Source: Pseudomonadota bacterium (GTDB taxonomy: Bacteria > Campylobacterota > Campylobacteria > Campylobacterales > Sulfurimonadaceae). Taken from it: DNA of 64,000 nucleotides. The stretch spans positions 96,001 through 160,000 of the forward strand of contig JAZDQA010000004.1 of NCBI GenBank assembly GCA_043797085.1. The letters run 5' to 3'. Position 1 is the first letter of the stretch, and the number at the start of each line of letters is the position of its first letter. Under the pieces are notes generated by a model. The model did not search any database and was not told where the DNA came from. It saw only the letters and a list, made by a program, of their open reading frames with translations. The position numbers were made by a program, and so were the translations under genes. Shown here piece after piece: positions 32,467-50,555 of this stretch.

Positions 32467-34107
32467 TTACGCACCTGGAAGATCCATGCGGTGCTCAATA
32501 GAATAAGTAAATGTTGGTGTTGTTAGCCCAGTAATTTGGGTAATGTATTCACCTGTTTTTGCGTCAAATACTAATATTCGTCCACATGTCCAATCCGAAA
32601 CATACGTATGCTCCCCATGAGCAGCAGGTTCTCCATGCAGTAATCGAGGGACAATAAGTTCGCCTTTTTCATTTTTTACGGCACCAATATTCCATTCTTT
32701 TATCACTTTGAGATTGTTCGGATCGATGAGCTGCACTTTGCCCTCTTTAGTCGCTTGGATAATGCGTCCGACCATCAACGTTTCTTTGTTGACTAGATGG
32801 ATTTTATTATAATTGTCTTCTCCGCCGATAACGTTGTCCGCCCAAAGAAAAGGTGTATGTTCATTGGTTCCGATAAATAGTCCGCCGCCGGCTGTTTTGG
32901 TGTGTTTTAATACATGCCATTGGTTGTCCCAAACGGTTACATCGCCTACATTCATGTTGACCGTTGCATGAAGCTGTTTACCTAATTTTTCATTGTACCA
33001 GCTTGAACCTTGTCCAGGATGCGGCTTGCTTCCCGGTCCGGTATAGACTTTATCTGTTAATGTTTTGGTTTTAAAGTCTACTATCCCCATGACATCACTT
33101 CCTTGAGAAGCTATCATGTAGTAGCGTCCTACCTCTTCTCCCTCATTCAAGAAGGCATCGTGTAAGATTTTACCGATTTTAGGAATATCTCCGACGATAG
33201 GGAAATCAGGCTTACTGTAATCGACGATATAGACGTGTCCTGCATCTTTAAGTGCAAATGCAATATATGGACCGTATGGAGTGTCGGCGATCGATGCAAC
33301 ACGAGAGGAGCCGATTTTGCCATCCATGTCTTCGACTTGATCGGTCGCATAGACTTTCAACGGTTTAAGTGTCATAGCATCCAAAAGTACGGCACCGCCT
33401 GGAACATAGTTACCCGCCATGAGATAGCGACCATCGGGCGTACAAGCAAGTCCGCGACTGTCGCTGCCGACACGGATTTTAGCGATCATTGGTTGTCCTG
33501 GGGCATTTAGATCAAACATATTGACCCATCCGTCACGACTGATGTTATACACGTAGCGAGGGATACGTTTATTGACTACGGTTACGTGAGTCGCGAAACC
33601 TGAGCTGTGTTTGGAGAGGACTTTGTTTGTTGTACCGTCAATAAATCCTACTTTTGAGGCATCCCGCTCGGTAAAGACCACGATATCCTGTACGCTTTTT
33701 ACGTCCGTTGGTTTCGGATATTTTTTGTACAATTCTTCACGGTCTTGGAGGATTTGATGTGTAGCAACAACATCTTCCATGGTGAGTTTCGTTAACTGTT
33801 TTGCTTCATATTTTAAGAGATATTGCACCATTTTATCTGCATCATCACTGGTGAACGTACTCTTAAAATCAGGCATTGCAGTACCGGCTCTTCCGTTAAG
33901 TATCGTATCTCTCAGAAAATAATCTCCTTTTTTACCAATGGCTTTTGGGTCAAGAGAACTTCCTACACCACCTTCGTGATTGGGGCCATGACACCCTTGA
34001 CACTCTTTGTCAAACATTTTTGCGACGTCCATTTTCGAATCGCCAGCCATTAGTGGAAGGGTTATAAAAAGAGCGCTCGCCAGGGTTGCTCCAAGAATCT
34101 TTTTCAT
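32467..34107 (-). CDS. nirS: Cytochrome cd1 nitrite reductase
   Basis: Signal peptide, CQGCHG...GTAMP c domain; d1 propeller with ATH, LHD and KPHPG histidines. Confidence 0.9.
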   Translation of the reverse strand: MKKILGATLASALFITLPLMAGDSKMDVAKMFDKECQGCHGPNHEGGVGSSLDPKAIGKKGDYFLRDTILNGRAGTAMPDFKSTFTSDDADKMVQYLLKYEAKQLTKLTMEDVVATHQILQDREELYKKYPKPTDVKSVQDIVVFTERDASKVGFIDGTTNKVLSKHSSGFATHVTVVNKRIPRYVYNISRDGWVNMFDLNAPGQPMIAKIRVGSDSRGLACTPDGRYLMAGNYVPGGAVLLDAMTLKPLKVYATDQVEDMDGKIGSSRVASIADTPYGPYIAFALKDAGHVYIVDYSKPDFPIVGDIPKIGKILHDAFLNEGEEVGRYYMIASQGSDVMGIVDFKTKTLTDKVYTGPGSKPHPGQGSSWYNEKLGKQLHATVNMNVGDVTVWDNQWHVLKHTKTAGGGLFIGTNEHTPFLWADNVIGGEDNYNKIHLVNKETLMVGRIIQATKEGKVQLIDPNNLKVIKEWNIGAVKNEKGELIVPRLLHGEPAAHGEHTYVSDWTCGRILVFDAKTGEYITQITGLTTPTFTYSIEHRMDLPGA

Positions 34108-39909: not shown

Positions 39910-41595
39910 TTAAATGGCAGAAATTTTATATCTAGAAAGTTCTCTTCCTTTGGTATCGATCACATGAACCGCACACGCCAAACATGGATCAAACGAATGA
40001 ATCACCCGTAATACTTCCAACGGACGTTGGGCATCTGCGAGCTTTATTCCGATAAGCGATTCTTCATACACACCTCGCTGTCCCATAGCATCTCGCGGTG
40101 ATGCATTCCATGTCGTTGGTGCTACGACTTGATAGTTCGCGACTTTTGCATCTTCAATTCGTACAAAATGACCCAAGACACCTCTGGGAACTTCAAAAAT
40201 CCCTGCACCTTTGGATACACTTGGCAAGGCTTCAAAAACATACTTTGTCCATGTTTCTTCATCATAATATTTGATGTTTTCGATTAAATCGCTCATAAAA
40301 TCAAAAAGATAATCGCAGCATATCTGCGCTTCGACGGCACGCGCCGCATTGCGTCCGATGGTTGTCGAAAAATCGATCAGAGTCATTCCCGTATCTTTCA
40401 TAAAACGATCCATATAGGGTTTAATCACTTTAGAGTTTTTCACCACGCCCACGATCATGCGAGCAACAGGACCTACTTCCATCACTTTTCCGCCATAGCG
40501 AGGAGCTTTTACCCAGCTATATTTCCCCTCACTTTTGAGCGTTCCATCCTCATTCAAATCGGTATAAAACGGGACACTCTCTTGATCGTATGGCGAGCTT
40601 GGAAGAGCATCTTCATACCAAGATCGGGATGCTTCTTCTGTGATTTTAGACGGATCAAAAGGTTCTATCGCATCAAAGTAATGCCCTGTAACGACACCAC
40701 TTTCAAAAAGCTGTTCTTTTGAAGCAAATTGATACCCGCCGCAGCACATAAAGTTTCCGCTTCCGCGCCCTTCACCCATTTTGATCGATTCTTCGTATGC
40801 TTTTACCATCATCTTCATGTCAGGTATATACGCACGCTCCAAGAAATCACGCGTCTCTTTGATCAGAAACATAAAATCATTGAGCCGTTGAGGGTTGAGC
40901 ATGTCCACAACACTGGTAACGCCTCCAACAACTAGATTTTGAGGGTGCGGAGTTTTTCCGGCGAAAATAGCGATGGCTTTGGAAATGTCATGCTGAATCC
41001 GAAGCGCTTCGAGATAATGGTTCATATGGACCAAATTTTCTTCAGGAGTCAGCCGATAGCTCTCATGTCCCCAATAACCATTAGCAAAGAGTCCTAACCG
41101 CCCTGCTTTGACGAAACTGTTCAGCTTCTCTTTGACGCTTTCCAAATGCCCCTCAGAGTTTCGATAAGGGCGTTCGTGATACTGTTGTGCACTCTTGACC
41201 GCTTTAGAACAATCCGCCGTTAAGGCACTCGTAATATCCACAAAATCAAGTGAATGAAGATGATAATAGTGAATAATATGATCTTGGACAAAAAGAGAAA
41301 GAGAGACAAGATTACGGACAATCTCGGCATTTTGAGGTATCGTAAGCCCATAGGCATCCTCAACAGCACTGATTGAGGCACGGTAATGAACGTTAGTACA
41401 AACACCGCAAATACGCTGCGCGATAAGCCCTGCATCTCTTGGATCACGTCCTTGTAGAATAATCTCTATACCGCGAAACAGCTGTCCGGATGCCCATGCA
41501 TCGGTAACAATATTTTCATCATTCACTTCTACTTCTATACGTAAATGCCCTTCAATACGAGTGATAGGATCGATAACGATTTTACGGTTACTCAT
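39910..41595 (-). CDS. [NiFe]-hydrogenase large subunit, group-1-like
   Basis: DPITRIEGH, L1 QRICGVCTNVH, L2 SFDPCLACAVH plus cleavable tail; start ATG 41595 overlaps the upstream stop. Confidence 0.95.
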   Translation of the reverse strand: MSNRKIVIDPITRIEGHLRIEVEVNDENIVTDAWASGQLFRGIEIILQGRDPRDAGLIAQRICGVCTNVHYRASISAVEDAYGLTIPQNAEIVRNLVSLSLFVQDHIIHYYHLHSLDFVDITSALTADCSKAVKSAQQYHERPYRNSEGHLESVKEKLNSFVKAGRLGLFANGYWGHESYRLTPEENLVHMNHYLEALRIQHDISKAIAIFAGKTPHPQNLVVGGVTSVVDMLNPQRLNDFMFLIKETRDFLERAYIPDMKMMVKAYEESIKMGEGRGSGNFMCCGGYQFASKEQLFESGVVTGHYFDAIEPFDPSKITEEASRSWYEDALPSSPYDQESVPFYTDLNEDGTLKSEGKYSWVKAPRYGGKVMEVGPVARMIVGVVKNSKVIKPYMDRFMKDTGMTLIDFSTTIGRNAARAVEAQICCDYLFDFMSDLIENIKYYDEETWTKYVFEALPSVSKGAGIFEVPRGVLGHFVRIEDAKVANYQVVAPTTWNASPRDAMGQRGVYEESLIGIKLADAQRPLEVLRVIHSFDPCLACAVHVIDTKGRELSRYKISAI

Positions 41596-44014
41596 GCGGT
41601 TCCTTTGGAAGTGGTCGATTATTGGCATATTCGTCAAACGCGATCTTACCCGCACCGCAGGCAAAACATCCATGACCTGCTTGTACCGGCCAGCTAGTTC
41701 CCTCATTAAACTTTACTTGTGGGCAGTTCATTTGGGCATACGGTCCTTTGCATCCCATTTGAAACAAACACCACCCTTTTTTTGCCCCTTCATCCCCCCA
41801 TTCGAGGACAAACTCACCCAAATCAAAATGTCCGCGCCGTTCGCAGTTATCATGAACTAAAAAACCATACGCCCACTCAGGACGATTTTTGGCATCCAGT
41901 TTTGGAAATTCGTCAAACATCATAAAATGAAGCAATGTTCCTACAATATTGATTGGATTAACCGGACATCCGGGGAGATTGATAATGTCTTTTCGCCCCA
42001 GTGCTTCTGAAACTCCAACAGCACCGGTCGGATTAGGTGCGGCAGCTACGACACCGCCATCATACGCACACGATCCCACGGCGATGACAGCTGCCGCATC
42101 TTTTGCAACACGTTGAAGCAGTGCATGTCCTGTTTCCCCTTTTGGACCGATACGTAAATATTTTCCATCCAGACCAAGCGGTACTGCTCCCTCGACAATC
42201 AAGATGTATTTACCTTTGTCATATTTGATAATATTATCAAGCACGTTTTCCGATTCTTCACCCGATCCAGCCATTAGTAGCTCATGGTAATCAAGCGAAA
42301 TGTATTTAAGAATCAAATCATCGATTTTCGGATGAGATGATTTGATAAACCCTTCTGAATTTCCACTGCAATCAGAGAGTTCCAACCAGATGATAGGGAT
42401 TTTATTGAGCTGCGCAACCCCCTCTTTCACCACCTCTTCGAAATCAGGATGCAAATGCATCGTCGCCGTAATCATCGAAACCCATTGGTTATATTCTCGG
42501 CTCATATCAAAAGAAGCGATTGCTTCTTCAAGATTTTCGGCACTGAGCTGATTTTTAGGATGGATGGTATTGTATTTATTGATCCGTGCACGAACACGTT
42601 CCAGCTCCGCTTCTTTAAGCTTATTTTCTCGTTCCTCTCTAAGTCGTACAGCTTCTTCATGATTTACTGGCGTAGCCGCGATCAAAGCAGAAATATCTTG
42701 CTTGCAACGACCGCATACACGACCTGCATTGGTATACGGTTTAAGTTCGATAAATGAAGTAATAGCATTGAGCTTGATAATTTCAATGAGATCTTCTTCA
42801 TAAGCACTCTCACAACTGCAAACCAAACGACCCTTTGTGCTATTGAGACGATTTGAGTAAAAGTACGCCGGATCAATTGTCTCATTTTTTTCCATTAATT
42901 TCTTGAGATGGATCAAATCAATATTGGTATTAATACCGATAAAGCGCTGGAGGTGATCATGATTGATGATGTATTGATCGATTCGATTTTTATGGGTGAT
43001 GAGGATGGTTTCGTTCTCTGAATCTTTAGGATTATAATTTGGGGAACGCACATCAGCAAAAAGAAATGAACCCACTTTTAGCCCATCAATAGACACCGTT
43101 TGCTCAAAAGTTTTTCTTTCTAGCCCCAACAATGTGTTAATAGCAACATCAGCTTGCAATGTACATTCTTTTACTCGTCCGGCAATAAATCCATTTTTAC
43201 GCAATTGTGCTGCTTCACCGACACAATAAATATCAGGATTAGAGGTACGCATTGTGTCGTCTACTAAAATACCTTTGTCACAATCGAGCACTCCACGGGC
43301 GAAAGAGACATTAGGATCAATCCCTGCTCCAAAAATAAGAAAAAGATTGTCAATCGTTCTATGACGCGTTTGGATTTCAGTGATTTCATTTTTATTAACT
43401 TTTTTACTGACTATCTCATCATTAAAATCGATTCGTATTCGTGGATCTTGTTCGAAAATTCCTCGTAGCAGTGCAATCCCCTCTCGACTTAAATCCGATG
43501 AATAAAGATGCTCTTTTCGAGCAAGTAAAGTAATTGATTCTGGGAATGGACTGCGCATCAGTGTATCAAGAAGTTCCAGCCCGATAGGTCCAACTCCCAC
43601 TATCACGATATTCTTTCCGATTATTCCTTGCTCTATTTTTGTACACTCTTTTTCACTTCGAAACGTCGATGCATTCTTGATTCCCTGAATATCAAAAGGT
43701 GCTTTAGGCTGAGATCCGGTTGCAATTATGAGTTTATCATAGGAAAATGCTGCATGTTCACTTAAAATACGTTTGGTTGAGACATCAATACCGACAATTG
43801 CCTGATTGAGTTCCAAACGTACTTTAGGATCAAGATCAAGGGTAATCGACTCAACGCATTGGCTTTTTTCCACAAGAGCGCAAAGATGAATTCGGTCATA
43901 CGGAGAATGAGATTCCTCAGATACAATCAGAACCTCACACGAACGATCCTTTTGCAATAACGTGTTAGCAAGATATACAGCAGATATTCCACCGCCTACA
44001 ATCACAATCCGCAT
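41588..44014 (-). CDS. Fusion of NirB-like FAD/NAD(P)H oxidoreductase, BFD [2Fe-2S] domain and [NiFe]-hydrogenase small subunit
   Basis: GGGISA, ATGS, GVGPIG, YCVGE; CSC...CGRC; WLELSDCSGN, VEGAVP, GSCA, LPGCP, HDNC, GWCLFQMGCKGP, HGCFAC. Confidence 0.92.
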   Translation of the reverse strand: MRIVIVGGGISAVYLANTLLQKDRSCEVLIVSEESHSPYDRIHLCALVEKSQCVESITLDLDPKVRLELNQAIVGIDVSTKRILSEHAAFSYDKLIIATGSQPKAPFDIQGIKNASTFRSEKECTKIEQGIIGKNIVIVGVGPIGLELLDTLMRSPFPESITLLARKEHLYSSDLSREGIALLRGIFEQDPRIRIDFNDEIVSKKVNKNEITEIQTRHRTIDNLFLIFGAGIDPNVSFARGVLDCDKGILVDDTMRTSNPDIYCVGEAAQLRKNGFIAGRVKECTLQADVAINTLLGLERKTFEQTVSIDGLKVGSFLFADVRSPNYNPKDSENETILITHKNRIDQYIINHDHLQRFIGINTNIDLIHLKKLMEKNETIDPAYFYSNRLNSTKGRLVCSCESAYEEDLIEIIKLNAITSFIELKPYTNAGRVCGRCKQDISALIAATPVNHEEAVRLREERENKLKEAELERVRARINKYNTIHPKNQLSAENLEEAIASFDMSREYNQWVSMITATMHLHPDFEEVVKEGVAQLNKIPIIWLELSDCSGNSEGFIKSSHPKIDDLILKYISLDYHELLMAGSGEESENVLDNIIKYDKGKYILIVEGAVPLGLDGKYLRIGPKGETGHALLQRVAKDAAAVIAVGSCAYDGGVVAAAPNPTGAVGVSEALGRKDIINLPGCPVNPINIVGTLLHFMMFDEFPKLDAKNRPEWAYGFLVHDNCERRGHFDLGEFVLEWGDEGAKKGWCLFQMGCKGPYAQMNCPQVKFNEGTSWPVQAGHGCFACGAGKIAFDEYANNRPLPKEPHE

Positions 44015-44102
44015 TCTTTATCCTTGTTATGAACTCTTCACTATTATGCCACATCAATGATAAGTCACGATAAAATAAACACCAATTAGTTATACTTTCA
44101 GT

Positions 44103-44309
44103 ATGGAATCAACTAAAGAGCAACTTATCAGCGATATTCAAAATTTACTGAACCGTTACGACGGATTAAAACCAACAACAATAAATCCAAATCTTTTGCA
44201 ATTTATGGACAAACCAACTCTTCTGCAAATCATTAACTCCGTGTTAAAGCAGCAAGAAAACGCAAATGAAGACAATGTTGAGTGGTTACAACAATTTAAA
44301 ACGATATAA
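44103..44309 (+). CDS. Small hypothetical protein
   Basis: 68-aa ORF occupying an intergenic gap, with upstream TATACT. Confidence 0.6.
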   Translation: MESTKEQLISDIQNLLNRYDGLKPTTINPNLLQFMDKPTLLQIINSVLKQQENANEDNVEWLQQFKTI

Positions 44310-44417
44310 TTTTCTTTTTTAATATTGTTAATAACTGTTTTAGAATATAATTACACTGTAAATTACAATGACATTTTTTAACATGTTGTTGAATATCATA
44401 TTTTAGGAGCCTTACCT

Positions 44418-44963
44418 ATGTCTAATATTGACTTGATCCAACTTACAGAACAAACCAAAAAACTTACAGCAATGGTTGTAGAAGACGAAGTGGTAGCCAA
44501 TGACCTTCTAAGTTCTACGTTTAAAAACTTTTTTGCAGATGTAACATCTGCTTATAATGGTGCAGAAGCTTTACGTGTATACGAAAAAATGAATCCGGAC
44601 ATCGTATTTGTTGACATTATCATGCCAGAAATTGATGGTATCGAACTTTCTCGCCGTATTCGTGCGATCAATCCATCACAAATCATTATCGTTATTTCAG
44701 CAAGTAATGATATTCAAAAGATTTCAGAATCAATCGAAGTTGGTGTAAACAGCTTTATCCAAAAGCCAATCGATACTAAAAAAATTCTTGAAATGCTTCA
44801 CAATATCGTTTCCCTTATCTCTAAGCGTAAGAAAATAGAAACAAAAACATTTTCAATCTCATTGCCATTAGATGTATATGAATTGGTAGATGACAATGCA
44901 AAAGCAGAGAGTATCTCTAAAAATGCTGTTATCATCCGTGCATTGCGTTCATTTTACAACTAA
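44418..44963 (+). CDS. Response regulator with C-terminal ribbon-helix-helix-like domain
   Basis: VVEDE, VDIIMP..DG, ISA, KP; tail TFSISLPLDVYELVD..AKAESISKNAVIIRALR. Confidence 0.85.
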   Translation: MSNIDLIQLTEQTKKLTAMVVEDEVVANDLLSSTFKNFFADVTSAYNGAEALRVYEKMNPDIVFVDIIMPEIDGIELSRRIRAINPSQIIIVISASNDIQKISESIEVGVNSFIQKPIDTKKILEMLHNIVSLISKRKKIETKTFSISLPLDVYELVDDNAKAESISKNAVIIRALRSFYN

Positions 44964-44980
44964 ATTTTCCTAAGTTTTAG

Positions 44981-45004
44981 ATCATAATGGATTTCCATTA
45001 TGAT
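44981..45004 (+). terminator. Hairpin after the response regulator
   Basis: ATCATAATGG-ATTT-CCATTATGAT followed by a T-rich tract. Confidence 0.6.
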
Positions 45005-45066
45005 TTAGCTTTTTTTCAGCTTTTTATCACTATAATTTCGGCTCAGGAATTAATTCCTACAAAAGT

Positions 45067-45141
45067 GGCTCCATCATCTAATGGTTAGGATTTCAGATTT
45101 TCATTCTGGTCATAGGGGTTCAAATCCCCTTGGAGTCACCA
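45067..45141 (+). tRNA. tRNA-Glu(TTC)
   Basis: GGCTCCA/TGGAGTC acceptor stem, TCAGA-TT-TTC-AT-TCTGG anticodon arm, GGTTCAAATCC T arm, encoded CCA; TATAAT at 45031. Confidence 0.96.
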
Positions 45142-45189
45142 TAACACTTTCCCTACACAACGTACTTTCAACCACTTTAAGCTTTATTG

Positions 45190-45215
45190 GGTCTCCGCTT
45201 GGGTCTCCACTTTTT
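45190..45215 (+). repeat. Paired GGTCTCC repeats, candidate integrase arm sites (left)
   Basis: GGTCTCC at 45190 and 45202 (12-bp period); GGTCTCCACTTTTT also occurs at 50445. Confidence 0.65.
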
Positions 45216-45238
45216 TCTTTAAGTTTTCATTATTAACC

Positions 45239-45499
45239 CTATCCTATTTGATTTTTTGCTATCAACTTATTCACTTCTACGATCTTATAAAAGAGTTTTC
45301 CTCCGAATTTATAATATGGTATTTCATTATTCATCCTCATTTTTGCCAATGTCGATTTATTGAATGCGAAAAGGCTAATTAATTCAGCCTCCGTTGCAAA
45401 CTCTTTTTCAGGTTGTATCAGTGCTTTTAACTGCTCCATTATTTTGTTCTGAAACACCACTAAGTCACTTTTAGTAATCAGGTCAATTGTTGCCATCAC
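45239..45499 (-). CDS. Excisionase-like HTH protein
   Basis: 86 aa; KSTLAKMR..NEIPYYKFGGKLFY, Xis/HTH_17-like. Confidence 0.8.
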   Translation of the reverse strand: MMATIDLITKSDLVVFQNKIMEQLKALIQPEKEFATEAELISLFAFNKSTLAKMRMNNEIPYYKFGGKLFYKIVEVNKLIAKNQIG

Positions 45500-45508
45500 C
45501 CTGCTCCA

Positions 45509-46822
45509 TTAAAATACAATCTCTTCAGATATATCACGTTTTTCTATTTCGTCCCGAATATCTTGCAAATGTTTAAACGCATTGTCATATGCCATAAACG
45601 GCTCTTCCATTTCACTTTCCATGAAACGCAAATGTTCTAGTAACTCATAGTCAGTTAGCATCTCTAATCTTGGAAATCTATAGGGAGCAAGATATTGTTT
45701 ATAAATAAGCTTGTAGCTAAACTTAAACTCTTTTTTCTTAAGACGCTCTAACTCAGATTGTACTTTTCCATAAAACTGTTCATCAAGAATAACACCATCA
45801 ATATCACATCGTCTATTAAATGCTAAAAAATCTTTGATTGCTTCTGTTTCAGAATATGTTCTAATTTTTCGTTTCAGCCGATGAAGCGGTAAGTCTAATT
45901 GTAAAAAATTCTCAAGCGCGTAGCTCTCTTTTAAGTAAGTCCATAATGGCAGTGTTGTAGCACGGTTCTTATTATTTGAATTTTTCTCATTCTCCGTAAT
46001 ACTGGAAAGATCAACTAAACGTAAAGCATCCATACAGTCTCTAAAGAGCGCATCGGCTTGTTTAAATAAATCGTCAATCGTATTAATGCCATACACTCGA
46101 AGCAAATGCTCGCGATGCATCTCAAACTCAAGATTAAACACCGTTTTTCTTATTTCAAAGCCATTATTTAAGAAATGTTCCCACATCATTTCGTATTTAT
46201 CCGTACGTTCCAGCTCTAAGCTTTTATTGTACATTCGTAAAAGAAACGGCTTTTTTCCAATATAAAGAGTTTGCATTCCATATTTGGACGCAATTTCTTT
46301 AGAAATCGTTTGGTAAATACGTTTACGCGTCACAAACATTTCTTTTGTGATCCATGAAAAATCATCTTGAACAAAGATATTCAAATCCGCACGGGTTATC
46401 GGCTTAAGTCCAGTTATAAAACCATCAAGTAAGTCATCAATAAGTTTCACGATTGCTTTAATGCCAAAAGTATAAATACCTTTCGCGTTTAGCTGAACTT
46501 GAATATTGTGAAGGTTCTTATTTTTAGTTGGGTCTTTGAAAGCAATACGAAAAAGCGAATCTGAATGTTTTAACCAATAAAACCCTTGATCTTTACCTGA
46601 AAAAACTAGCTGTTGTTCATTGATCGTGATTGATATGTCAGAATATTTATACATCGTATTATTCTTTTCAAGTTGTGACTTCTTCTCTTCAATCTGATCG
46701 ATTATGTCTAAAAAAAGATCGTCATAGTATGAATTAGTTTGATAAAAATAGTAGAGAGTATCAATCCCACTAATTGTTTTTGGTAAATGTGTTAATTTGA
46801 GTTCACTATTGAGATTAAGCAT
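45509..46822 (-). CDS. Rolling-circle replication initiation protein (Rep_trans-like)
   Basis: SGIDTLY, ITRADLNI, TLYIGK, LRMYNK, NLEFEM motifs in the order expected for Rep_trans. Confidence 0.75.
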   Translation of the reverse strand: MLNLNSELKLTHLPKTISGIDTLYYFYQTNSYYDDLFLDIIDQIEEKKSQLEKNNTMYKYSDISITINEQQLVFSGKDQGFYWLKHSDSLFRIAFKDPTKNKNLHNIQVQLNAKGIYTFGIKAIVKLIDDLLDGFITGLKPITRADLNIFVQDDFSWITKEMFVTRKRIYQTISKEIASKYGMQTLYIGKKPFLLRMYNKSLELERTDKYEMMWEHFLNNGFEIRKTVFNLEFEMHREHLLRVYGINTIDDLFKQADALFRDCMDALRLVDLSSITENEKNSNNKNRATTLPLWTYLKESYALENFLQLDLPLHRLKRKIRTYSETEAIKDFLAFNRRCDIDGVILDEQFYGKVQSELERLKKKEFKFSYKLIYKQYLAPYRFPRLEMLTDYELLEHLRFMESEMEEPFMAYDNAFKHLQDIRDEIEKRDISEEIVF

Positions 46823-46861
46823 CTGATGTCCTTATTTTGTATTATGTATGATGTTTAGATA

Positions 46862-47331
46862 GGAGTGTTACTAGAACGCTCCCAACAAGATCGAAATTAA
46901 TCGATCACAGCCCGAACCTGCGAAAATATTTTCTAAATGTTTAAACAGTGAAATAGTAGTTTTTTTTGAGATTGTCGGGAATAGCGACATTTTGCTGTTT
47001 GAAAGTACCTTGTTGTGGGAGCTATAGAGGGCTCATTGTCGCTATTAGCGACATATCGATTATTTAGACAGAGAAAAATTGGTGCAAGTGTTTGGCGCTT
47101 CGGCCAGCGAATAGCCTTATTTGACGCATAAAGTTGTATTAAAGGGTTTCGCCTACGGCGAGGCTCTGGAAGAAGAAGTATTACGTTGTGGCGAAGAGGC
47201 TTAATCGGCCTAAGTCACCGCGTCTCGGGACAGAGTCCCACGCGGTTTGGCTTGGTCAGGCCTTAGCTAGTGTTACGTTTGGTGTACGCGCGTTTGCGCT
47301 TCCGCATATCGGGTCAGGGGGAATATCCCCC
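46862..47331. other. Candidate replication origin region (hairpins and palindromic repeats)
   Basis: Hairpins at 46862-46882, 47207-47262 and 47317-47331; 20-bp repeats at 46971 and 47035. Confidence 0.55.
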
Positions 47332-47417
47332 GCAGACAGCCCCCTCATAAATGAAAAACCTAATATAAGATATCTTAGTTATACTACTTACAAAATATAT
47401 TTTTAGGAAAAAGCATT

Positions 47418-48392
47418 ATGAATTTACCTGCTACTGATTTAACACAAGGTGATTATAAATGTTACCTAGCTGTCATGGATGCAAAAACTGTCTATGAACA
47501 TTCAATTGTATCAAGAGCAGTTGATGATCCTGACAAAGGTTATCAAAGACACTTAGATGAGAAACGGGCAAAAGATATTGCGAATTATTTAGATGATGGT
47601 AATGTCATTCCAGGTTGTATAATTCTTAGTGCTCAAGAATCGGCAAAACTGACTTTTGAGAATGCTAGTATTACTTTTGATGATACTGCAAGTGACGCTT
47701 TTTTTGTTATTGACGGTCAACATAGGCTGTATGGTTCACACATGGCAACTACAGATATAAATTTACCTGTGTACATCTTTCAAGGTTTAGAGATCCAAGA
47801 AGAAATTCAATTGTTTTTAGATGTAAATTCAAAACAAAAAGGTGTGCCAAAAACACTTCGAATAGCTTTGACAAAATTTTTAAATGAACCAGAATCTATC
47901 GAACAAATTCGTCTTGAACTATTTAATAAATTAAATACAGATCCTGAATCACCCTTATTTAACCGATTAAGTAGCTCAACATCTGTTGCAGGAAAATTAT
48001 CACAAGTACCTTTTCAAGATGCGATCAACCCCGTATTAGAAACAAATGTTATGAAAGCATTAGAGTTCGATAAAAAATATATACTCCTTGTAAATATTTT
48101 AAATGCAGCTTCAGATATTCTTACTGAAACATTAGGTGATTCAAAAAGGCTTACCACTACAGTCTTCTTTATTTCACTATTTAAAAACTTTGAATTAATA
48201 TGTAACTTTGCATTAATGTCAGGAGGATATAAATATGAAAACTTTCAAGGGGCAATCCAGCCACTTAAATATATCGATTTTGAAGGCTATGCAGGTACAG
48301 GAAGTGCAGCAAATAAACTAATGACAGATGCAATGAGACAACTCATAGAAAGTCATTATCATAAATTAAATAATGTCGATAACTTATTTTAA
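47418..48392 (+). CDS. DGQHR-domain (DndB-like) protein
   Basis: GYQR.LD..R...IA.YL, IDGQHR, LFLDVN..QK.V. Confidence 0.9.
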   Translation: MNLPATDLTQGDYKCYLAVMDAKTVYEHSIVSRAVDDPDKGYQRHLDEKRAKDIANYLDDGNVIPGCIILSAQESAKLTFENASITFDDTASDAFFVIDGQHRLYGSHMATTDINLPVYIFQGLEIQEEIQLFLDVNSKQKGVPKTLRIALTKFLNEPESIEQIRLELFNKLNTDPESPLFNRLSSSTSVAGKLSQVPFQDAINPVLETNVMKALEFDKKYILLVNILNAASDILTETLGDSKRLTTTVFFISLFKNFELICNFALMSGGYKYENFQGAIQPLKYIDFEGYAGTGSAANKLMTDAMRQLIESHYHKLNNVDNLF

Positions 48393-48395
48393 TAT

Positions 48396-49283
48396 ATGCC
48401 AATTATTGCGTTTAAAGAAAGCATATCTGCTTATCTAAAGGAAATTGACTACAAAGCAGAAACGTATAATTTTTCACCTCTGCATACATTCAAAAATAGT
48501 CTTTTGACAGATCCAAATGTAGCCGTAAACATTTACGCAAAGAATGCATTTTATGTTCAAATCAATACTAATGATTTTAACGAAATTTTAACGAATACAT
48601 TTTATTATAACTACTCAAGATTCCAAGAACAAACTAAACAAATAGAATATTTAAAAGTCTCGACAAGTTCTGCTTGGCTTTTAACAACTATCTATTATGC
48701 ATGTTTTTTTGCTGCTAATGAAATAACAAATTTACATGGGGTATACAATTTAACACTTACAGAAGATGATAAAAAAAAATTGATTCCTAGGAATACATCG
48801 AATCAAGATAGCTTAGTTAGAGATTTCTTAACAAAGGGGCCAACCCACTTTGAAGGAAAAGCGAAGGCAATAGCAGATAATAACACTATACAAATTCATT
48901 TTTTTAGTGGAGGGGGGAAACCGCATGAATTAACATGGAATAATTTGAAAAAAGTTCTGTCATATGGTAGCCGTGCAAGTGAAAACCGCCTTAAGCAACT
49001 CACTCGAATAAAAAATATTTTATCAAATATACAGCAATGGAAAAGACCAAATCAAATCCGTAATGAATGGAATTATTCTAAACCGGAGTTATATCTTGAT
49101 GATGGAAATAGACATAAAGATACGATAATTAATTTCCTTGACAATTTTCAAAGTATAAATAGATGGGCAGCAAGAACATCTAGCAAACGCACAAATATTG
49201 ATGATGATGTTATTAGTATACTTTTTTTATTTGAAATACTCAAAAATACACTTGAAGAATACAAACTAAATATATTAAACTGA
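48396..49283 (+). CDS. Hypothetical protein, possible divergent HEPN fold
   Basis: YYACFFAA helix, G.KPH, RNEWNY; 3 bp after the DGQHR gene; AT-rich. Confidence 0.65.
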   Translation: MPIIAFKESISAYLKEIDYKAETYNFSPLHTFKNSLLTDPNVAVNIYAKNAFYVQINTNDFNEILTNTFYYNYSRFQEQTKQIEYLKVSTSSAWLLTTIYYACFFAANEITNLHGVYNLTLTEDDKKKLIPRNTSNQDSLVRDFLTKGPTHFEGKAKAIADNNTIQIHFFSGGGKPHELTWNNLKKVLSYGSRASENRLKQLTRIKNILSNIQQWKRPNQIRNEWNYSKPELYLDDGNRHKDTIINFLDNFQSINRWAARTSSKRTNIDDDVISILFLFEILKNTLEEYKLNILN

Positions 49284-49296
49284 TTATCAAAAACTT

Positions 49297-50418
49297 TTAG
49301 CTCAGTAAATTCTTTGACACCTCCTGCATCATCCCACTAGACTCTTTTCGTTGAAGCGACAAATATTGCTTAACGGTATTAGTATCTGTATGCCCTAAAA
49401 GTGATGAAAGGTGAATCGCATCAACTCCTTGGCTAGAGAGTGCCGACACGGCAAGATTACGCATCCAGTGATAGCCAAACTCTTCAATCCCTGAATCGGT
49501 ACGGATAGAGTAGATATGCTCTCGTATATCGGTGTATTGTCCACCACCGCGAGGAGATTTAAACACCAAGCCCTCTTTACCAGTATATTTGGCAATTTCC
49601 AATAATGCTATTTTTATATCATCTGAAAGGGTAAATTCTAAATCTATTCCTATTTTGCTTTGCTCTCTTGGAATAATGAAAGTCTTATTTTTCAGATCAA
49701 CATTTTCCCATGTAAGAGAAAGGACTTCATTTCGTCGCCGTCCGTAGAATCCAAATAAAAAGATTGCGCGCATAGTTGGATTGTTTTTATAGACGGAGAG
49801 AATACTCTTATAAACTTTTTTATATTTCTCAACGGCGTTATGGATCACTCTTTTTTCTTCCACCATTTTACGAGTAACGCGGTGACTTTTTTTAATGGGG
49901 GATACTTGGATGGATTCATCTTCAATTGCAAGTTCAAATAGAGGGTGCAGGACTTCCGTTAATCTTTTTTGTGATCGCTTGGATAGGTGAGATACGTTTG
50001 CGCCGATAGTGGTCAAATCTGATGACTTAACCGCTGATATTTCTTTATCACCAATAATCGGTTTGATGTATTTGGTGAAATAGCCTTTGAGTTTATATTT
50101 GTGGTCTTCAGACCAGTTGTTGCGTTTAATTTCAAGAAGACGATCAAAATAATCACTTACACTCAAATGAGGACTGGCGGAACTTGATTTATGTGATGCT
50201 TGCGATAACTCCATAATGTATTCATCAAGTACACGGCGAGCCAGTTCAATGTTTCGCCCTTTGGTGTTTCCATCAACCGTAAATGTTTTACGATAGCGTT
50301 TCTGATTGACTCGAAACTCCATAACGAACTTACTATCATTGTCCTTATGAATCTTTAAATTAGGGACTTCATTCCCTTTATAGCTCACTTGTACGTAGTC
50401 CTTTATGTAAGTTCCCAT
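49297..50418 (-). CDS. int: Tyrosine recombinase/integrase
   Basis: GRRRNEVLSL.W, SK, HWMR, LLGHTD...Y catalytic motifs; adjacent to attR. Confidence 0.93.
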   Translation of the reverse strand: MGTYIKDYVQVSYKGNEVPNLKIHKDNDSKFVMEFRVNQKRYRKTFTVDGNTKGRNIELARRVLDEYIMELSQASHKSSSASPHLSVSDYFDRLLEIKRNNWSEDHKYKLKGYFTKYIKPIIGDKEISAVKSSDLTTIGANVSHLSKRSQKRLTEVLHPLFELAIEDESIQVSPIKKSHRVTRKMVEEKRVIHNAVEKYKKVYKSILSVYKNNPTMRAIFLFGFYGRRRNEVLSLTWENVDLKNKTFIIPREQSKIGIDLEFTLSDDIKIALLEIAKYTGKEGLVFKSPRGGGQYTDIREHIYSIRTDSGIEEFGYHWMRNLAVSALSSQGVDAIHLSSLLGHTDTNTVKQYLSLQRKESSGMMQEVSKNLLS

Positions 50419-50432
50419 TTTAATCCCCTTGT

Positions 50433-50458
50433 GGTCTCCATAAAGGTCTCCACTTTTT
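50433..50458 (+). repeat. Paired GGTCTCC repeats, candidate integrase arm sites (right)
   Basis: GGTCTCC at 50433 and 50445, same 12-bp period as the left pair. Confidence 0.65.
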
Positions 50459-50555
50459 AGATATACGATGGTATCCATATCTATTTAAAGAGCTGTTTAA
50501 GTCCCAATATTAGGGAAATTAATCATAAGGAATCGATAGAAATCAGAGTCAACAC

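Follow-up and report, generated by a model that had tools for sequence, protein, structure and literature searches.

A flavoprotein-fused group-1 [NiFe]-hydrogenase of Campylobacterota carries a fossil Tat signal within its small subunit

The 64,000-nucleotide window analyzed here (positions 96,001 to 160,000 of contig JAZDQA010000004.1, assembly GCA_043797085.1, from a Sulfuricurvum-type member of the Sulfurimonadaceae within the Campylobacterota) encodes a two-gene [NiFe]-hydrogenase in which a flavoprotein with flavin adenine dinucleotide (FAD) and nicotinamide adenine dinucleotide (phosphate) [NAD(P)] sites is fused to a group-1-type small subunit. All positions given are those of the window unless a contig or locus is named. 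Judged by its alignment, the linker of the fused protein is a fossil twin-arginine translocation (Tat) signal, which is reported here for the first time. We favor, with a rough probability of 0.55, the view that the enzyme is a cytoplasmic two-subunit H2:NADP+ oxidoreductase derived from a Tat-exported group-1b uptake hydrogenase. The architecture is a known design and an uncharacterized enzyme type rather than a new one.

The fused small-subunit gene (41588..44014, minus strand; Pfam and NCBIfam) encodes an 808-residue protein composed of a flavoprotein, a BFD domain, a linker, and a [NiFe] small-subunit domain, and an AAGGA ribosome-binding site lies about 10 nt upstream of its ATG. Pfam assigns Pyr_redox_2 to residues 1-269 (E 6.8e-36), Fer2_BFD to residues 397-446 (1e-8), Oxidored_q6 to residues 549-696 (8e-27), and NiFe_hyd_SSU_C to residues 716-788 (1e-25), and NCBIfam returns a hydA small-subunit match over residues 505-788. 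The N-terminal FAD/NAD(P)H ferredoxin-reductase-like module (residues 1-390; 42845..44014, minus strand; PF07992, TIGR02374, and Foldseek) contains the FAD site GGGISA at residues 7-12 and the NAD(P) site GVGPIG at residues 140-145, together with Cys45 and Arg166. It is followed by a BFD-like [2Fe-2S] domain (PF04324; residues 397-446; 42677..42826, minus strand) having CSC at residues 399-401 and CGRC at residues 434-437. An earlier reading of this DNA from its letters (hereafter the original prediction) had named these FAD, NAD(P), and BFD motifs, and all were located, as were the four Pfam domains. A long helical linker that runs into the fossil Tat signal peptide (residues 452-535; 42410..42661, minus strand; BLASTP alignment and model) connects these modules to the iron-sulfur (FeS) domain of the small subunit (residues 536-808; 41588..42409, minus strand), which has no C-terminal membrane anchor. 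The ligands of this last domain are C549, N552, C649, and C683 for the proximal cluster, His721 with C724, C749, and C755 for a second, and C764, C783, and C786 for a third, an allocation of ligands to clusters that we take to be the usual one. The small subunit had been described as complete; the domain is indeed present, but it is not fully canonical in that the second Cys of the proximal CxxC is replaced by Asn552.

The large-subunit gene (561 residues; 39910..41595, minus strand; PF00374, 660 bits) lies directly downstream, and its ATG at 41595, which matches the start in all relatives, overlaps the small-subunit stop by 8 bp (ATGAGTAA), the arrangement that had been predicted. The longest open reading frame (ORF) would begin at 41706, a start that was discarded as an upstream artefact because the relatives all agree with ATG 41595. 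The protein has the catalytic core of group 1, combining PF00374 with an N-terminal CxxC and a C-terminal DPCxxCxxH: the Ni-Fe Cys pairs are C63/C66 and C538/C541, followed by His544, and the motifs read RICGVC and DPCLACAVH. Its best solved relatives are group-1 enzymes (417-485 bits), headed by that of Desulfovibrio vulgaris Miyazaki F (1h2a, 484.7 bits). The mature solved chains stop at query residue 544 and the window's large subunit continues for 17 residues beyond His544, a C-terminal extension that implies maturation by an endopeptidase. A Pfam scan of the neighboring genes in the window found no cytochrome b, HybA/B, or protease gene adjoining the pair, in agreement with the original prediction.

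The origin of the fusion is recorded in the linker. The small-subunit domain is 49% identical to the Tat-exported small subunit encoded on contig C7 of the source genome, and the corresponding large subunits are 47% identical. This exported small subunit is a protein of 412 residues with the motif RREFMK, and its gene is clustered with those of a 591-residue large subunit and a cytochrome b. The BLASTP alignment of the two small subunits begins at residue 473 of the fused protein and residue 34 of the exported precursor and runs through the signal peptide, and we therefore read the linker as a fossil Tat signal. Linker residues 505-523 (nt 42446-42502) are SREYNQWVSMITATMHLHP, and their counterpart in the exported small subunit is RREFMKWASATTAMLMLPP. 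Hence RREFMKW of the exported paralogue corresponds to SREYNQW at residues 505-511, some 500 residues inside the fused protein. Arg occupies the two twin-arginine positions in 4/163 and 68/163 fused sequences, respectively, and the N, W, and S that follow are near-invariant. The fused protein has no RRxFxK at its N-terminus and retains only this decayed internal relic. Among the sampled non-fused small subunits of at least 360 residues, RRxFxK was found in all 19 (the two E. coli references included); three sampled group-2-like small subunits of 294-301 residues lack it. At its other end the fused protein stops at the position of residue 360 of the 412-residue paralogue, whose remaining stretch of about 50 residues contains a hydrophobic tail. 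The decayed motif and the shortened C-terminus bear out the predicted absence of a Tat signal and of a C-terminal anchor.

In comparison with the Tat-exported, cytochrome-b-linked group-1b HydABC enzymes of Campylobacterota, the fused enzyme shares the proximal-cluster motif CxGN and the same kind of large-subunit C-terminal extension, and the homology of its small subunit extends into the HydABC signal peptide. In contrast to HydABC, it has neither twin arginines nor a membrane anchor nor a cytochrome b partner, and it has gained about 470 N-terminal residues. 

A quick maximum-likelihood tree was built from 56 large subunits, consisting of 38 partners of fused genes, 13 partners of Tat-type small subunits, three partners of 381-residue small subunits, and E. 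coli HyaB and HybC as the outgroup. Left out were 22 further fused-type matches that were partial or near-duplicate plus one duplicate Tat-type, one partial, and two group-2-like sequences, these exclusions being made blind to the outcome. The partners of fused genes formed one clade (Shimodaira-Hasegawa-like approximate likelihood ratio test, SH-aLRT, 100; long stem, 0.5), within which the large subunits of Hydrogenovibrio and Thiomicrorhabdus were nested among those of Campylobacterota. The large-subunit phylogeny proposed as a check by the original prediction thus gave monophyly. Four Sulfuricurvum-type loci (L011, L022, L023, and L064) encode a second hydrogenase with a Tat-bearing small subunit of 381-384 residues a few kb from the fused pair, and the large subunits of hydrogenases of this kind were the sister group of the fused clade (SH-aLRT 87). 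Note that the 1b label of the large subunit rests on published classifications and on the best solved match (D. vulgaris), because the tree contained only E. coli enzymes of types 1c and 1d as references and none of types 1a, 1b, or 1e. The conversion of a respiratory enzyme into a soluble cytoplasmic H2:NAD(P)+ oxidoreductase, as originally proposed, is supported by the fossil signal and by monophyly as far as the conversion goes; the turnover of NAD(P) is a step that we still infer.

The Asn of the proximal cluster is not peculiar to the fused form. In alignment with E. coli Hyd-2, the proximal C..C pair reads C549..N552, whereas 11 of the 12 canonical FeS ligand positions are kept and invariant. 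CxGN is also found in 10 Tat-bearing small subunits of 406-427 residues, including the source genome's own, and in a Tat-bearing frame of 360 residues (L084) having an N-terminal region about 50 residues shorter than the others. Three further Tat-bearing subunits went unread at the proximal motif because the search pattern caught the signal peptide instead. The Tat-exported, cytochrome-b-linked subunits with CxGN are encoded at L010 (6953-8191, contig C7), L027, L078, L081, and L084-L089. In contrast, CxxC is present in four small subunits of 381-397 residues (as CTGC) and in both E. coli proteins. As CxGN is common to ordinary Tat-exported subunits, it is a trait of the lineage rather than decay of the fused form, and this sharing is also new here. 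No paper on the fourth ligand of a CxGN cluster turned up, although no literature search was aimed at that question.

The flavoprotein module matches TIGR02374 (nirB) over residues 1-451, with 136 bits against a cut-off of 578, and the match ends at profile position 471 of 794. This is before the sirohaem domain, and the protein is therefore not a member of the NirB family; it has the domain order and motifs of the NirB/NasB N-terminus but lacks the sirohaem/nitrite reductase domain. Foldseek with residues 1 to about 400 returned putidaredoxin reductase, BphA4, TodA, and rubredoxin reductases at TMt values of 0.81-0.86, the first three at 0.81-0.83. The module has the fold and motifs of NAD(P)H:ferredoxin/rubredoxin reductases such as putidaredoxin reductase, BphA4, NorW, and the Pyrococcus furiosus protein 1xhc, and both sequence and model show a likeness to reductases that mediate electron transfer between NAD(P)H and [2Fe-2S] proteins. 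In the AlphaFold2 model of the 808-residue protein (92-row alignment), the flavoprotein has a predicted local distance difference test (pLDDT) score mostly above 90 and residues 452-484 form a long helix; Foldseek on the whole model returns the flavoprotein module only.

The nucleotide specificity of the module was approached by alignment with annotated E. coli enzymes. The fused protein has LLARKEH at the end of beta-2, the second strand of the NAD(P) fold. The discriminating position is occupied by E, D, and E in the NADH/NAD-linked NirB, NorW, and Lpd, whereas the fused protein has no acidic residue there. Its ARKEH segment, which includes Arg166, aligns with VRKH (LFVRKHA) of the NADPH-linked glutathione reductase. 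In this segment the best solved match has ARG where the fused protein has ARK. In BphA4, mutants at E175, T176, and Q177 were reportedly made to shift NADH to NADPH use. An acidic residue at the end of beta-2 is the rule for NAD enzymes, and V197E, R198M, K199F, H200D, and R204P are among the changes that switched E. coli glutathione reductase to NAD (PMC5817062). Given the missing acidic residue and the alignment with VRKH, the family bears an NADPH-type fingerprint, a finding that is new here and would refine the "NADH" of the 2006 paper on the XCL-2 enzyme discussed below. In the same alignments, Cys45 stands where E. coli NirB and NorW carry Ser.

The fusion recurs in many genomes. All four families were present in 120/120 relatives among the matches listed from a search of 5.8 billion proteins; 118 of these relatives are 790-840 residues long and 65-92% identical to the window's protein, and their sources include Sulfuricurvum, Campylobacterales, and Campylobacterota. 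Among the best 150 matches in a library with 50%-identity clusters there was only one other full-length cluster (P0123, 53% identity), and the fused family is therefore compact. A scan of species-representative genomes yielded 582 relatives, from which 79 loci (the L numbers used here) were kept, 55 of them with a full-length fused ORF. By record title, the carriers are Sulfuricurvum, Sulfurimonas, Sulfurovum, Arcobacter, Aliarcobacter, and Hydrogenimonas plus the gammaproteobacteria Thiomicrorhabdus and Hydrogenovibrio. A survey of 401 sampled Campylobacterota genomes with query residues 1-530 (E ≤ 1e-60) found the fusion in 27 genomes, the source genome included, representing 10 of 63 genera; 18 of 34 genomes of its own family and 4 of 4 of its own genus were positive (source genome excluded). 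The fused open frames in this survey are 806-924 residues long, except for one cut by a contig end. A large subunit adjoins the fused gene in 53 of the 55 loci, as an intact ORF in 48 and as detected by tblastn in five. An assembly chimera is excluded by the same fusion in 120/120 listed relatives, 55 loci, and 27/401 genomes, which settles the domain-architecture check that had been proposed in favor of a genuine gene. One locus (L027) sits on a contig labeled Candidatus Izemoplasmatales but encodes Campylobacterota hydrogenases of both the fused and the Tat type and clusters with Sulfuricurvum in the large-subunit tree; the label is probably a binning error.

Conservation was read from 163 distinct fused sequences (the window's own, 52 from the loci, and 110 database proteins) that span 52-94% identity. 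The set was picked by length and by the motifs GNSE and HDNCERR, which biases the values for N552, H721, and C724; both motifs are nevertheless present in all 119 full-length database relatives listed. G140, G142, E147, the four BFD cysteines (Cys399, 401, 434, and 437, each 163/163), and every FeS ligand of the small subunit are invariant. G7 and G9 of the FAD site are found in 162/163, the remaining sequence having a gap, and Cys45 and Arg166 are conserved in 163/163 and 162/163, respectively.

Previous studies had recognized this type of enzyme in the gammaproteobacterium Thiomicrospira crunogena XCL-2. Scott 2006 (PMC1635747) described a two-domain small subunit that has sites for FAD and NADH but lacks a twin-arginine leader, and proposed either direct cytoplasmic H2/NAD(H) coupling that dispenses with diaphorase subunits or service as a sink for reductant. 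Hansen and Perner 2016 (PMC4744846) gave the length of the XCL-2 small subunit as 813 residues, reported no cytochrome b, and named Sulfuricurvum kujiense as a carrier. Gonnella 2019 (PMC6501319) classed the enzyme as 1b and attributed the membrane activity of strain SP-41 to a second cluster, of group 1d. The novelty claimed by the original prediction is therefore lost, the fusion and the same deduction having been in print since 2006 for XCL-2 and a carrier from this genus, Sulfuricurvum, since 2016. Its statement that no enzyme of this architecture had been characterized agrees with our finding no biochemical study in the full-text literature, a body that leaves most subscription journals outside coverage, so that one may exist.

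Cluster I of Hydrogenovibrio crunogenus (Tcr2037/Tcr2038, strains XCL-2 and SP-41) encodes the same small subunit of about 810 residues with a pyridine nucleotide-disulfide oxidoreductase N-terminus; like the window's enzyme, it has no Tat motif and no cytochrome b, and its large subunit is classed as 1b. In size, N-terminal domain, and lack of Tat motif and cytochrome b, the window's hydrogenase is of the XCL-2 type. Full-length matches at 57-61% identity in Hydrogenovibrio and Thiomicrorhabdus loci indicate orthology with the gammaproteobacterial genes, the comparison being with these loci and not with XCL-2's own sequence. Those of Hydrogenovibrio sp. SC-1 and of a Hydrogenovibrio metagenome-assembled genome (MAG) are 57% identical, and their large subunits fall inside the fused clade. 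The gammaproteobacterial pair is part of a complete operon (hypBCDEA, small subunit, large subunit, protease, hypF), whereas the window's pair is a bare two-gene unit with its maturation genes elsewhere. Hydrogenases of groups 3b and 3d (Hox/SH and sulfhydrogenase) share with the fused enzyme the proposed cytoplasmic reaction of H2 with NAD(P)+ but belong to another catalytic lineage, and their diaphorases are separate subunits, the fused enzyme having instead an FAD reductase of the ferredoxin-reductase/NirB type built into its small subunit. On the window's large subunit, matches to group-3 chains are confined to the first 115-137 residues, which places this subunit outside groups 3b and 3d, an assignment made on these matches and without a genome-wide search for diaphorase genes.

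PF00374 has five matches in the source genome, which belong to three large-subunit genes, those of the fused enzyme, the membrane-bound enzyme, and a 435-residue group-2-like protein. By length and context, none of the three encodes a group-3 large subunit. The group-2-like protein ends at the His without a C-terminal extension. Its gene forms a pair with that of a 294-residue small subunit lacking a Tat motif (L010 3896-6074, contig C7), located just upstream of the membrane-bound cluster; a TetR-family gene precedes the pair and a pentapeptide-repeat gene comes after it. Contig C7 also carries one hypABCDEF set, a second HypF-like gene, and two HycI-type proteases. At L010 10843-15135 the two HypF-like genes are in tandem, the first (640 residues) consisting of the zinc-finger and part of the C-terminal domain, and the two proteases are in tandem as well. 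Assignment of protease 1 to the fused enzyme was abandoned, since 40% versus 33% identity to the protease of the Hydrogenovibrio operon is too weak a basis.

The neighborhoods of ten related loci were scanned using 72 of their 129 ORFs, those closest to the hydrogenase. The hyp genes and a protease flank the fused pair in Thiomicrorhabdus and Hydrogenovibrio, and in Sulfurimonas crateris a protease gene comes after it. Three of the ten loci (L030, L069, and L074) have group-4/complex-I-like genes no more than 8 kb from the pair. Neither cytochrome b (PF01292) nor HybA was found near the fused pair in any of the ten.

RNA cover was sought in metatranscriptomes. A groundwater run (X1) holds 90% of the sampled words, and its contigs match 40360-42088, a segment spanning the junction of the two genes, and 42093-44037 at 100% identity, free of mismatches. 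Together they cover most of both genes, an observation that is also new here. Cover elsewhere is patchy, 7 of the 30 bins of the 16-kb stretch having none, and the X1 contig of highest depth (61.8) covers 44273-45016. A one-base insertion in an X1 contig at 41776 falls in a run of seven T and is attributed to an error in the contig. No cover of the locus came from two further runs of that study, X6 and X7. Run X2 holds only short, diverged pieces and hence represents a relative, not this strain. The X1 cover is consistent with in situ transcription, and the hydrogenase is probably expressed.

In the mechanism we favor, the large subunit would split H2 at its Ni-Fe site and the electrons would pass through the three FeS clusters of the small subunit to the fused BFD [2Fe-2S] center and on to FAD, which would reduce NADP+ (NAD+ being less likely) in a reaction that should be reversible. 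A sulfur- and hydrogen-oxidizing autotroph could thereby obtain NADPH straight from H2 without reverse electron flow. Maturation would depend on the single hypABCDEF set and one of the two endopeptidases, encoded elsewhere in the genome. The electron path, acceptor, direction, and cellular location given here are those that the sequences suggest. Somewhat more tentative, and in our estimate falling a little short of an even chance, is the broader proposal of a working two-polypeptide H2:NADP+ oxidoreductase that represents a functional class arisen within group 1, independently of group 3, and spread to Hydrogenovibrio and Thiomicrorhabdus. Such a class could have originated when a NirB-like reductase became joined to a periplasmic uptake enzyme at the latter's Tat signal, with later spread from Campylobacterota. 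If the proposed reaction does occur, two structural genes and a standard maturation set would be enough to make NADPH from H2. This would account for a saving on reverse electron flow by sulfur bacteria of vents and groundwater wherever H2 is available, and would offer a compact candidate for H2-driven NADPH regeneration. Moreover, gene surveys list the fused enzyme as an ordinary group-1b or "HupSL" uptake hydrogenase, and its share in H2 metabolism may therefore be misread.

Several observations weigh against this interpretation. Strain XCL-2, which has only this hydrogenase, showed no H2 consumption and no activity in membrane or soluble fractions (PMC4744846). The proximal cluster has Asn where the second Cys is expected, and Hansen and Perner 2016 (PMC4744846) read non-canonical FeS motifs as possible poor FeS binding. 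The preference for NADP over NAD is a sequence fingerprint, to which position 145 (G in 95/163, A in 67/163) adds no discrimination. The proposed mechanism gives no role to the invariant Cys45 next to the flavin site. The AlphaFold2 model has a predicted template modeling (pTM) score of 0.58 and a small-subunit domain mostly below pLDDT 50; with no confident domain arrangement, the distances from the distal cluster through BFD to FAD are unreadable. Of the cluster-to-FAD wire that the original prediction would have had modeled, the flavoprotein is confident and the wire itself is not. Two of the 55 loci (L030 and L047) have no large subunit beside the fused gene. Finally, run X1 may stem from the assembly's own sample and could contain carried-over DNA, and contigs do not by themselves prove transcription.

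The same wire could run in reverse, the enzyme serving mainly as a redox valve that disposes of surplus NAD(P)H as H2 under a shortage of electron acceptors, and H2 formation from NAD(P)H is feasible at low H2 pressure. Scott 2006 (PMC1635747) proposed this alternative for XCL-2, with which the lack of H2 consumption by that strain (PMC4744846) would accord. We consider it unlikely, since uptake-type group-1 enzymes are the ancestors of the catalytic core, the carriers live as lithoautotrophs and possess H2-uptake clusters, and no fermentation genes were linked to the pair in the ten loci scanned. We rate no higher a route in which electrons from H2 pass via FAD and Cys45 to a sulfur compound, a disulfide or persulfide, or O2, which would make the protein a cytoplasmic "sulfhydrogenase"-like or protective enzyme with NAD(P)H as second donor or regulator. 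The presence of Cys45 in 163/163 sequences, where E. coli NirB and NorW have Ser, would find an explanation in this way, the fold family does include coenzyme A-disulfide/persulfide reductases, NADH oxidases, and peroxidases, and the hosts are sulfur bacteria. However, it is ferredoxin/rubredoxin reductases and NirB that match best in sequence and fold, the single-Cys enzymes mostly match only from about residue 65-80 on, and the NAD(P) site is fully conserved.

Less probable still is a protein with little or no catalysis, either an H2/redox sensor or a decaying paralogue. The absence of activity in XCL-2 (PMC4744846), the unusual proximal-cluster ligand, the divergent response regulator in the source genome and L013, and the 2/55 loci lacking an adjacent large subunit could all be read in its favor. 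Decay is hard to reconcile with cofactor ligands that are each invariant in 163 sequences of 52-94% identity, with maturation genes (dedicated proteases and hyp) in the same operon in three relatives, and with RNA-library contigs over both genes. The protease-dependent C-terminal extension is kept, whereas it is absent from the sensory type such as the source genome's 435-residue subunit, and the response regulator is shared with close kin only. The periplasm offers no substrate to an FAD/NAD(P)H module, which counts against an enzyme that is still a membrane-linked respiratory uptake hydrogenase, whether by hitch-hiker export or by docking to another complex such as the group-4/complex-I-like modules. 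We regard that possibility as very improbable: although such modules lie within 8 kb in the three loci named above and strains with this large-subunit type show membrane-bound activity (PMC4744846), the SP-41 activity is explained by its second, Tat/cytochrome-b cluster (PMC6501319), the fused enzyme lacks Tat motif, anchor, and cytochrome b, and the source genome's window has no group-4/complex-I-like neighbor.

Among the surrounding genes, a divergently transcribed response regulator of 181 residues (44418..44963, plus strand; Pfam) adjoins the fused gene both here and in the close relative L013 but in no other of the ten loci scanned; it is an unproven candidate for membership of the hydrogenase system. 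The 400-bp gap between hydrogenase and response regulator contains a 68-residue ORF without a Pfam match (44103-44309, plus strand). Beyond these genes, at 45067-50478, a tRNA-Glu precedes a low-GC stretch (0.33) containing a helix-turn-helix gene, a 437-residue protein of no family, a DndB-like gene, a 295-residue protein of no family, and a phage-type integrase. The segment looks like an integrated island that lies beside the hydrogenase and does not include it. Horizontal arrival of the hydrogenase with this integrase island was accordingly rejected, the island being on the far side of the tRNA-Glu.

On the other side of the pair, a cytochrome cd1 nitrite reductase (NirS-type) gene (32467-34107, minus strand) adjoins a Crp-family regulator and a TonB-dependent receptor. 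At the two loci without an adjacent large subunit, both from MAGs, defense-type genes lie downstream of the fused gene: NTP_transf_2, Fic, and AbiEii at L030 (10463-12965) and a STAND NTPase with tetratricopeptide repeats at L047 (3647-5570). A promoter scan was uninformative (13 sites versus 12.8 expected), and terminator-like sites (11 versus 3.5 expected) were located within coding sequence.

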